This document shows positions 5,619-5,824 of a DNA stretch of 64,000 nt, piece after piece; position 1 is the first letter of the stretch; each line of letters begins with the position of its first letter. A program made the position numbers and the translations under genes. This DNA comes from Escherichia coli (GTDB lineage: Bacteria > Pseudomonadota > Gammaproteobacteria > Enterobacterales > Enterobacteriaceae), in assembly GCF_003790525.1 (NCBI RefSeq), contig NZ_CP033635.1; one strand, given 5' to 3'. The notes under the pieces were generated by a model. It was not told where the DNA came from, made no database searches, and saw only the letters and a program-made list of their open reading frames with translations.

Positions 5619-5824
5619 TAAATTTAATAGATGTTGATGGGGGCTTTCTTAATATACGTCTGGATACTCGCCATTTCGTAGCCCTGTTTTTGAAAGCGCT
5701 CTGTCATAATGAGAGTTACCCGATACCTTATTATCAACAGGTAACTCTCAATCTTTAAAAAACGTCTGTATTTTTAAATGTGATAAACTTTATACCTTGA
5801 GTACATGGAGAGAATAATCGCTTA

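Follow-up and report, generated by a model that had tools for sequence, protein, structure and literature searches.

Shared terminators are common between convergent genes, and SEnd-seq mapping reportedly found bidirectional terminators that such gene pairs share. Canonical intrinsic terminators, in the terms used for comparison here, have a G+C-rich stem of about 5-14 bp, a loop of 3-8 nt and at least 5 U among the 8 nt that follow it directly, and their RNA ends 7-9 nt past the stem. The REP/BIME elements are repeated extragenic palindromes at mRNA 3' ends that can block exonucleases and stabilise the mRNA upstream of them. A further class of 3' ends forms when 3'-5' exonucleases trim the products of Rho termination back to a stable stem-loop without a U-rich tail, the Rho loading region lying just downstream (Dar and Sorek, 2018; PMC6061677). 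The hairpin that we describe here, located between ycgN and hlyE of Escherichia coli, is very probably the terminal stem-loop of the ycgN mRNA, whatever the mechanism that generates the end. It resembles the Dar and Sorek class in being a stable stem-loop immediately upstream of a precise 3' end.

The window analyzed here is the whole 64-kb (64,000-nucleotide) stretch of E. coli DNA in which ycgN, the final gene of the ycgJ-ycgL-ycgM-ycgN transcription unit, converges on hlyE (Table 1). The stop codons at 5618 (+) and 5825 (-) bound a convergent spacer of 206 nt, under which RefSeq carries no annotation in E. coli genomes. The original prediction had placed in this intergenic region an 11-bp perfect inverted repeat with a 19-bp spacer (5710-5750). 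The sequence confirmed both the repeat and its location, which is 74 nt beyond the hlyE stop codon when read on the hlyE strand; the arm sequence has no further occurrence within the window. With arms of 11 bp or more and spacers of 3-30 nt, 7 perfect inverted repeats occur in the window against a mean of 0.32 in dinucleotide shuffles, an enrichment of about 20-fold, and 26% of the shuffles contained at least one. A lone repeat of this class is therefore not impossible by chance, yet the class itself is strongly enriched. The other six (arms of at least 11 bp, spacers of 4-26 nt) lie at 569-594, 16400-16428, 20274-20321, 29920-29956, 40047-40074 and 42865-42912.

Table 1. Features at the convergent ends of ycgN and hlyE, in window coordinates.
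Feature	Position	Strand	Basis and remarks
ycgN CDS (RefSeq start; YcgN family cysteine cluster protein)	5172-5618	+	ORF list; RefSeq annotation, colinear K-12 locus (L001, 1054-1500)
ycgN 3' UTR, about 139-140 nt	5619-5757	+	PMC10687069 Supplementary Data 4
Left arm, TGAGAGTTACC	5710-5720	unstranded	Sequence; invariant in sampled E. coli except C5720T
Spacer, forming the RNA hairpin loop (19 nt)	5721-5739	unstranded	Folding
Right arm, GGTAACTCTCA, exact reverse complement of the left arm	5740-5750	unstranded	No variant among the sampled sequences
AT-rich, untranslated sequence that continues, antisense, into the 3' end of hlyE	5758-5836	+	Composition; PMC7815308
hlyE (clyA/sheA) CDS, convergent with ycgN	5825-6736	-	ORF list; K-12 annotation

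Published genome-wide 3'-end tables already catalogue the feature, its fold included. We converted K-12 positions to window positions by subtracting 1223658, a value taken from the identical 206-nt spacer (K-12 1229277-1229482, window 5619-5824). The RNAtag-seq/TRS data assign to ycgN a "distant primary" 3' terminus on the + strand (PMC10687069, Supplementary Data 3), with a peak at K-12 1229409-1229420 (window 5751-5762) and a dominant position at 1229415 (window 5757), 7 nt beyond the stem. The signal of this terminus is 0.83, with adjusted p values of 1e-7, 2e-16 and 3e-6 in the three libraries (PMC10687069). As the associated structure, the same tables print exactly the hairpin at the ycgN end, with an energy of -17.1 kcal/mol; the printed sequence spans the dominant position from -50 to +1, as we checked on the thrL and thrC rows (PMC10687069). 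Independently of TRS, the ycgJ-ycgL-ycgM-ycgN unit derived from SEnd-seq extends from K-12 1226480 to 1229413 (PMC10667835, Table S7) and hence to window position 5755, 5 nt after the stem. Steady-state ycgN RNA of the + strand thus ends 5-7 nt past the 3' arm. The curated Term-seq 3' ends of Adams et al. (PMC7815308) do not include a ycgN end at the hairpin, and the main texts searched gave nothing relevant on hlyE together with ycgN or on a clyA/hlyE terminator.

The RNA between the ycgN stop codon and this end belongs to the ycgN message. Read-start densities in the UTR (0.14-0.24) are similar to those in the coding sequence (0.11-0.16), and the UTR is flagged as an outlier in no library (PMC10687069, Supplementary Data 4). 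Because UTR coverage tracks that of the coding sequence, we rejected a small RNA derived from the 3' UTR. The whole UTR folds as an upstream helix followed by the terminal hairpin (-37.5 kcal/mol, z -3.4); the upstream element is a second long helix predicted at 5635-5706 (+), GAUGGGGGCUUUC...GAAAGCGCUCUGUC. We also dropped a 47-aa open reading frame that crosses the hairpin (5615-5758), which has no support and whose GTG start overlaps the stop of ycgN, as well as a promoter-like match at 5759-5730 (-), since such matches are no commoner than in shuffled sequence. Further upstream, between ycgM and ycgN, a canonical hairpin (GCCGCCTGAAAGCGGCGGC, 5087-5113, +) coincides with published 3' ends at K-12 1228772/1228773, which points to an internal terminator or processing site inside the ycgJLMN unit.

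Folding gave strong structures on both strands. The + strand hairpin (-17.1 kcal/mol, as in the published table) has a z score of -5.3 and a predicted inner helix of 4 bp (5722-5725 with 5732-5735) that leaves an apical loop of 6 nt. On the - strand the stem extends to 13 bp through added G.U and C-G pairs (-19.5 kcal/mol, z -4.0). The + strand tail, AAUCUUUA, has U at 4 of 8 positions and A at both of the positions nearest the stem, and the - strand tail, UUAUGACA, has 3 of 8, so that both fall short of 5 U in 8. No A-tract precedes the stem, the upstream sequence being GUCAUAA. The stem is a perfect 11 bp, of which 5 pairs are G-C (45% G+C), and the loop has 19 nt, or 6 nt if the inner helix forms. 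A scan for canonical terminators did not call the site. We therefore agree with the original prediction that the repeat has no adjacent U-tract and is not a simple intrinsic terminator.

Downstream of the hairpin, published data place a region of Rho termination on the + strand, with its peak at K-12 1229494 (window 5836; PMC7815308, Supplementary file 2). The peak is about 79 nt downstream of the ycgN 3' end and antisense to the 3' end of hlyE. Coverage upstream and downstream was 103 and 27 without bicyclomycin (BCM) and 169 and 208 with it, for a Rho score of 4.7 and a p value of 4e-12 (PMC7815308); these values come from 800-nt windows and localize the Rho region coarsely. At this low resolution, the drop in coverage is gone in the presence of BCM, and termination at the site does not behave as independent of Rho. 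Antisense promoters in the AT-rich, H-NS-silenced hlyE gene, unmasked by BCM, could have inflated the Rho signal.

The stable stem-loop, the lack of a U-rich tail and of an upstream A-tract, and the BCM data together fit the class described by Dar and Sorek, in which a BCM-sensitive zone just downstream of the hairpin (coarse as its localization is, in 800-nt windows) has a ready place. We favor this combination of Rho termination and an exonuclease barrier as the origin of the ycgN 3' end, at a rough probability of 0.55. RNA polymerase would mostly pass the hairpin, which offers no usable U-tract. Rho would then release the polymerase within the next ~100 nt, a stretch that is AT-rich, untranslated and antisense to the hlyE 3' end, and the 3'-to-5' exonucleases PNPase and RNase II would trim the transcript back to the 11-bp stem, leaving a precise, protected 3' end. 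Several observations weigh against Rho termination with trimming. The class has a mild excess of C over G downstream, unlike the + strand at ycgN: the sequence after the 3' end is 29-40% G+C, and a rut-like C>G skew is absent from the + strand over the 80-150 nt that follow that end (C/G 0.79-1.04), the mild downstream excess of C lying on the - strand (C/G 1.2-1.3). Add to this the coarse BCM windows, the missing end in the set of Adams et al., and a 3' end at +7 within CUUUA that would be expected equally of a weak intrinsic terminator. The portions of the PNPase and RNase II tables that we searched (PMC10667835) list no exonuclease stop at the coordinate of the hairpin end. The hairpin differs from the class, too, in its long loop of 19 nt, the loops of the class being reported as similar in length to those of intrinsic terminators (PMC6061677).

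That weak intrinsic terminator is the main rival. Both the distance of the 3' end from the stem and its CUUUA context also fit it. It would be non-canonical and possibly bidirectional, serving ycgN and hlyE alike: the partial U stretch after the stem on either strand would release some polymerases, and Rho would mop up the readthrough. The ends at 5755 and 5757 lie at what we counted as the classical distance, the hairpin is stable on both strands, and its location between convergent genes is a usual one for such elements. Intrinsic terminators stand, too, at the equivalent place after ycgN in other genera, and one follows hlyE in Trabulsiella. Set against this are the sequence features already described, from the half-U tail with A at its two nearest positions to the long loop, the 5 G-C pairs and the silence of the consensus scan. 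The loss of the whole coverage drop with BCM, such that downstream coverage exceeded upstream coverage, argues further against any appreciable release independent of Rho. We regard a weak terminator as possible, though unlikely. As for its bidirectional form, the hairpin is, like the known examples, a single palindrome between convergent genes that folds well on both strands; unlike them, it lacks A-tract/U-tract symmetry around the stem, and the parts of the 3'-end tables that we searched (PMC7815308, PMC10687069 and PMC10667835) hold no 3' end on the hlyE strand. The 13-bp fold modeled for the opposite strand, which is the stronger of the two and has a mild excess of C over G downstream of it, could plausibly do the same job for the hlyE mRNA when hlyE is expressed.

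In several other genera, a classical G+C-rich hairpin with a T-run follows ycgN within 20-60 nt. The terminators of Pseudocitrobacter, Kosakonia, Enterobacter, Trabulsiella and Raoultella resemble the E. coli element in providing a hairpin at the same gene end and the same genomic position, and in E. coli the RNA 3' end likewise falls ~7 nt past the stem. A transcript end is thus expected where the E. coli hairpin stands. The canonical terminators (those after ycgN in other genera, the one after hlyE in Trabulsiella and the ycgM hairpin at 5087-5113) have, however, G+C-rich stems, loops of 4-7 nt, runs of T6-T9 and often an upstream A-run, unlike the 45% G+C stem, 19-nt loop and AAUCUUUA tail of the E. 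coli hairpin. The ancestral textbook terminator of ycgN is absent from E. coli, which has in its place an atypical hairpin, in the spacer beside the horizontally acquired hlyE islet, that apparently works with Rho.

Within E. coli the element is nearly universal. The 206-nt spacer was present in 5414 of 5426 complete genomes at 95-100% identity. A 51-nt core was found in 5410 of the 5426, at a median of one place per genome, and 4349 records were 100% identical to it. Beyond the species, 80 ycgN loci from other Enterobacteriaceae (species-representative genomes with YcgN) lacked both hlyE and the hairpin. Among other Escherichia species, homology with the window ends at the ycgN stop codon and resumes at ~7004-7006, upstream of umuD. 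The segment that contains hlyE and its flanks (5619-7004) behaves like an islet specific to E. coli, set between the stop codon of ycgN and the region upstream of umuD, and it is lost by IS1-associated deletions. In Escherichia sp. MOD1-EC7003, a close relative, homology continues to 5688 and gives way to a diverged IS1-like fragment, the deletion reaching 8745; in strain PEC41, an IS1A lies directly after window position ~5666 and hlyE has been lost. The point at which homology resumes in the other Escherichia species falls inside an element encoding the C0299 sRNA, a full-length Rfam match at 6970-7048 (+) between hlyE and umuD (106.7 bits; gathering score 40) that is separate from the hairpin.

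The hlyE genes found elsewhere do not carry the hairpin with them. E. coli has at most about 25 nt in common with Salmonella (two subspecies) and Trabulsiella 3' of the hlyE stop codon, and the downstream structures in those genera are different, that of Trabulsiella hlyE being a textbook terminator. With so little common sequence past the stop, the hairpin is not a conserved element of the hlyE 3' UTR. It lies instead in a spacer, 5619 to ~5800, that only E. coli has and that separates ycgN from the hlyE cassette. This spacer is bracketed by an imperfect direct repeat of 15 nt, GTGATAAATTTAATA at 5615-5629 and GTGATAAACTTTATA at 5780-5794 (13/15 identical), and the second copy is a few nt from the end of the E. 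coli-Salmonella hlyE 3' homology (~5800). The repeat could be an insertion footprint or a chance match.

That this segment is specific to E. coli lends some weight to a second alternative, in which the hairpin is a selectively neutral by-product. The palindrome would have arisen by chance or come with the acquired AT-rich spacer; it would stall exonucleases and set the 3' end, and would not be maintained for that function. The shuffled windows that contain at least one such repeat (26%) are compatible with a chance origin, and so is the conservation of the arms. Given the 11 variable sites of the 206-nt spacer, ~1.2 are expected among the 22 arm bases and the probability of none is ~0.29, which is not significant. 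The ~20-fold excess of such repeats in the real window speaks against it, however, as does the position of this repeat at the very place where a transcript end is both needed and observed. We consider a neutral by-product improbable; were it one, the observed RNA end would still be set by the hairpin.

The variation among sampled E. coli sequences bears on the same alternative. The arms vary at a single position, C5720T. Two other substitutions fall between the arms, C5727T in the loop and A5733G in the predicted inner helix, where it makes a U.G pair. Both of the substitutions at paired positions, C5720T and A5733G, still pair, as G.U, in RNA of the + strand (-15.2 kcal/mol, with 100% of cells paired), a point against a neutral by-product that is weak at n=2. 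On the - strand RNA they produce A.C mismatches (-16.7 or -13.9 kcal/mol). Two substitution events can do no more than hint that it is the + strand fold that matters. The changes within E. coli were all one-sided, without compensatory doubles; diversity is too low for covariation, and shuffle controls were uninformative. A deep alignment for a covariation test is impossible because the 80 loci of other Enterobacteriaceae lack both hlyE and the hairpin. For a related reason, loss of the arms in close relatives, which the original prediction had offered as its refutation, proved uninformative: the E. coli spacer is 95-100% identical throughout, and beyond the species the segment as a whole is missing rather than diverged.

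The original prediction had also suggested that long-spaced, perfect arms are more typical of a dimeric protein-binding site or a structured RNA element. The RNA element stands, given the published ycgN 3' end 5-7 nt past the stem. A DNA site at which a dimeric protein (a transcription factor, recombinase or nucleoid protein) binds two 11-bp half-sites is very unlikely, for beyond the perfect arms nothing was found in its favor: the sequence is single-copy in 5410 genomes, a search of E. coli genomes at E<=10 returned no second or related site, it lies between two gene ends rather than at a promoter, the centres of its half-sites are separated by 30 bp, it has no Rfam or repeat-family match, and the mapped RNA 3' end explains the repeat fully. 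An origin in REP/BIME, ERIC, MITE or IS ends is excluded by the single copy and by the lack of an Rfam match above noise; the only match on the hairpin at E<=10 was to a microRNA family and scored 19 bits, where the gathering score is 90. The ycgN hairpin is accordingly like REP/BIME in its place at an mRNA 3' end and unlike them in copy number and sequence.

Read as the terminal structure of the ycgN mRNA, the hairpin accounts for an unannotated palindrome and has little significance beyond annotation. The locus might still be a modest test case for the rebuilding of transcript ends that follows an island insertion, and it could show whether ycgN readthrough yields antisense RNA over hlyE. 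One could go further and propose that such readthrough tunes the toxin as antisense RNA, the hairpin and Rho zone forming a conditional barrier, with the hairpin insulating ycgN from hlyE transcription and a horizontally acquired palindrome having replaced the ancestral canonical terminator to serve both genes. We hold this extended proposal to be improbable; if it were true, shifts in Rho activity, translation or structure at the site would tune expression of a pore-forming toxin.

Strains with altered hlyE genes provided further observations on the hairpin. One genome designated E. coli (GCA_046506745.1, locus L091) encodes an HlyE of 89% identity next to an intact hairpin. Its umuC, ycgM and other neighbouring genes are fragmented, and the HlyE divergence is probably not real and due to indel sequencing errors. 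In many other E. coli strains, the annotation gives hlyE as a pseudogene, either incomplete or frameshifted (loci L003, L004, L006 and L092-L096 among those with a truncated gene). The hairpin is intact in these strains, the difference in it being mostly the loop SNP C5727T, and it has thus been retained where hlyE is no longer intact.
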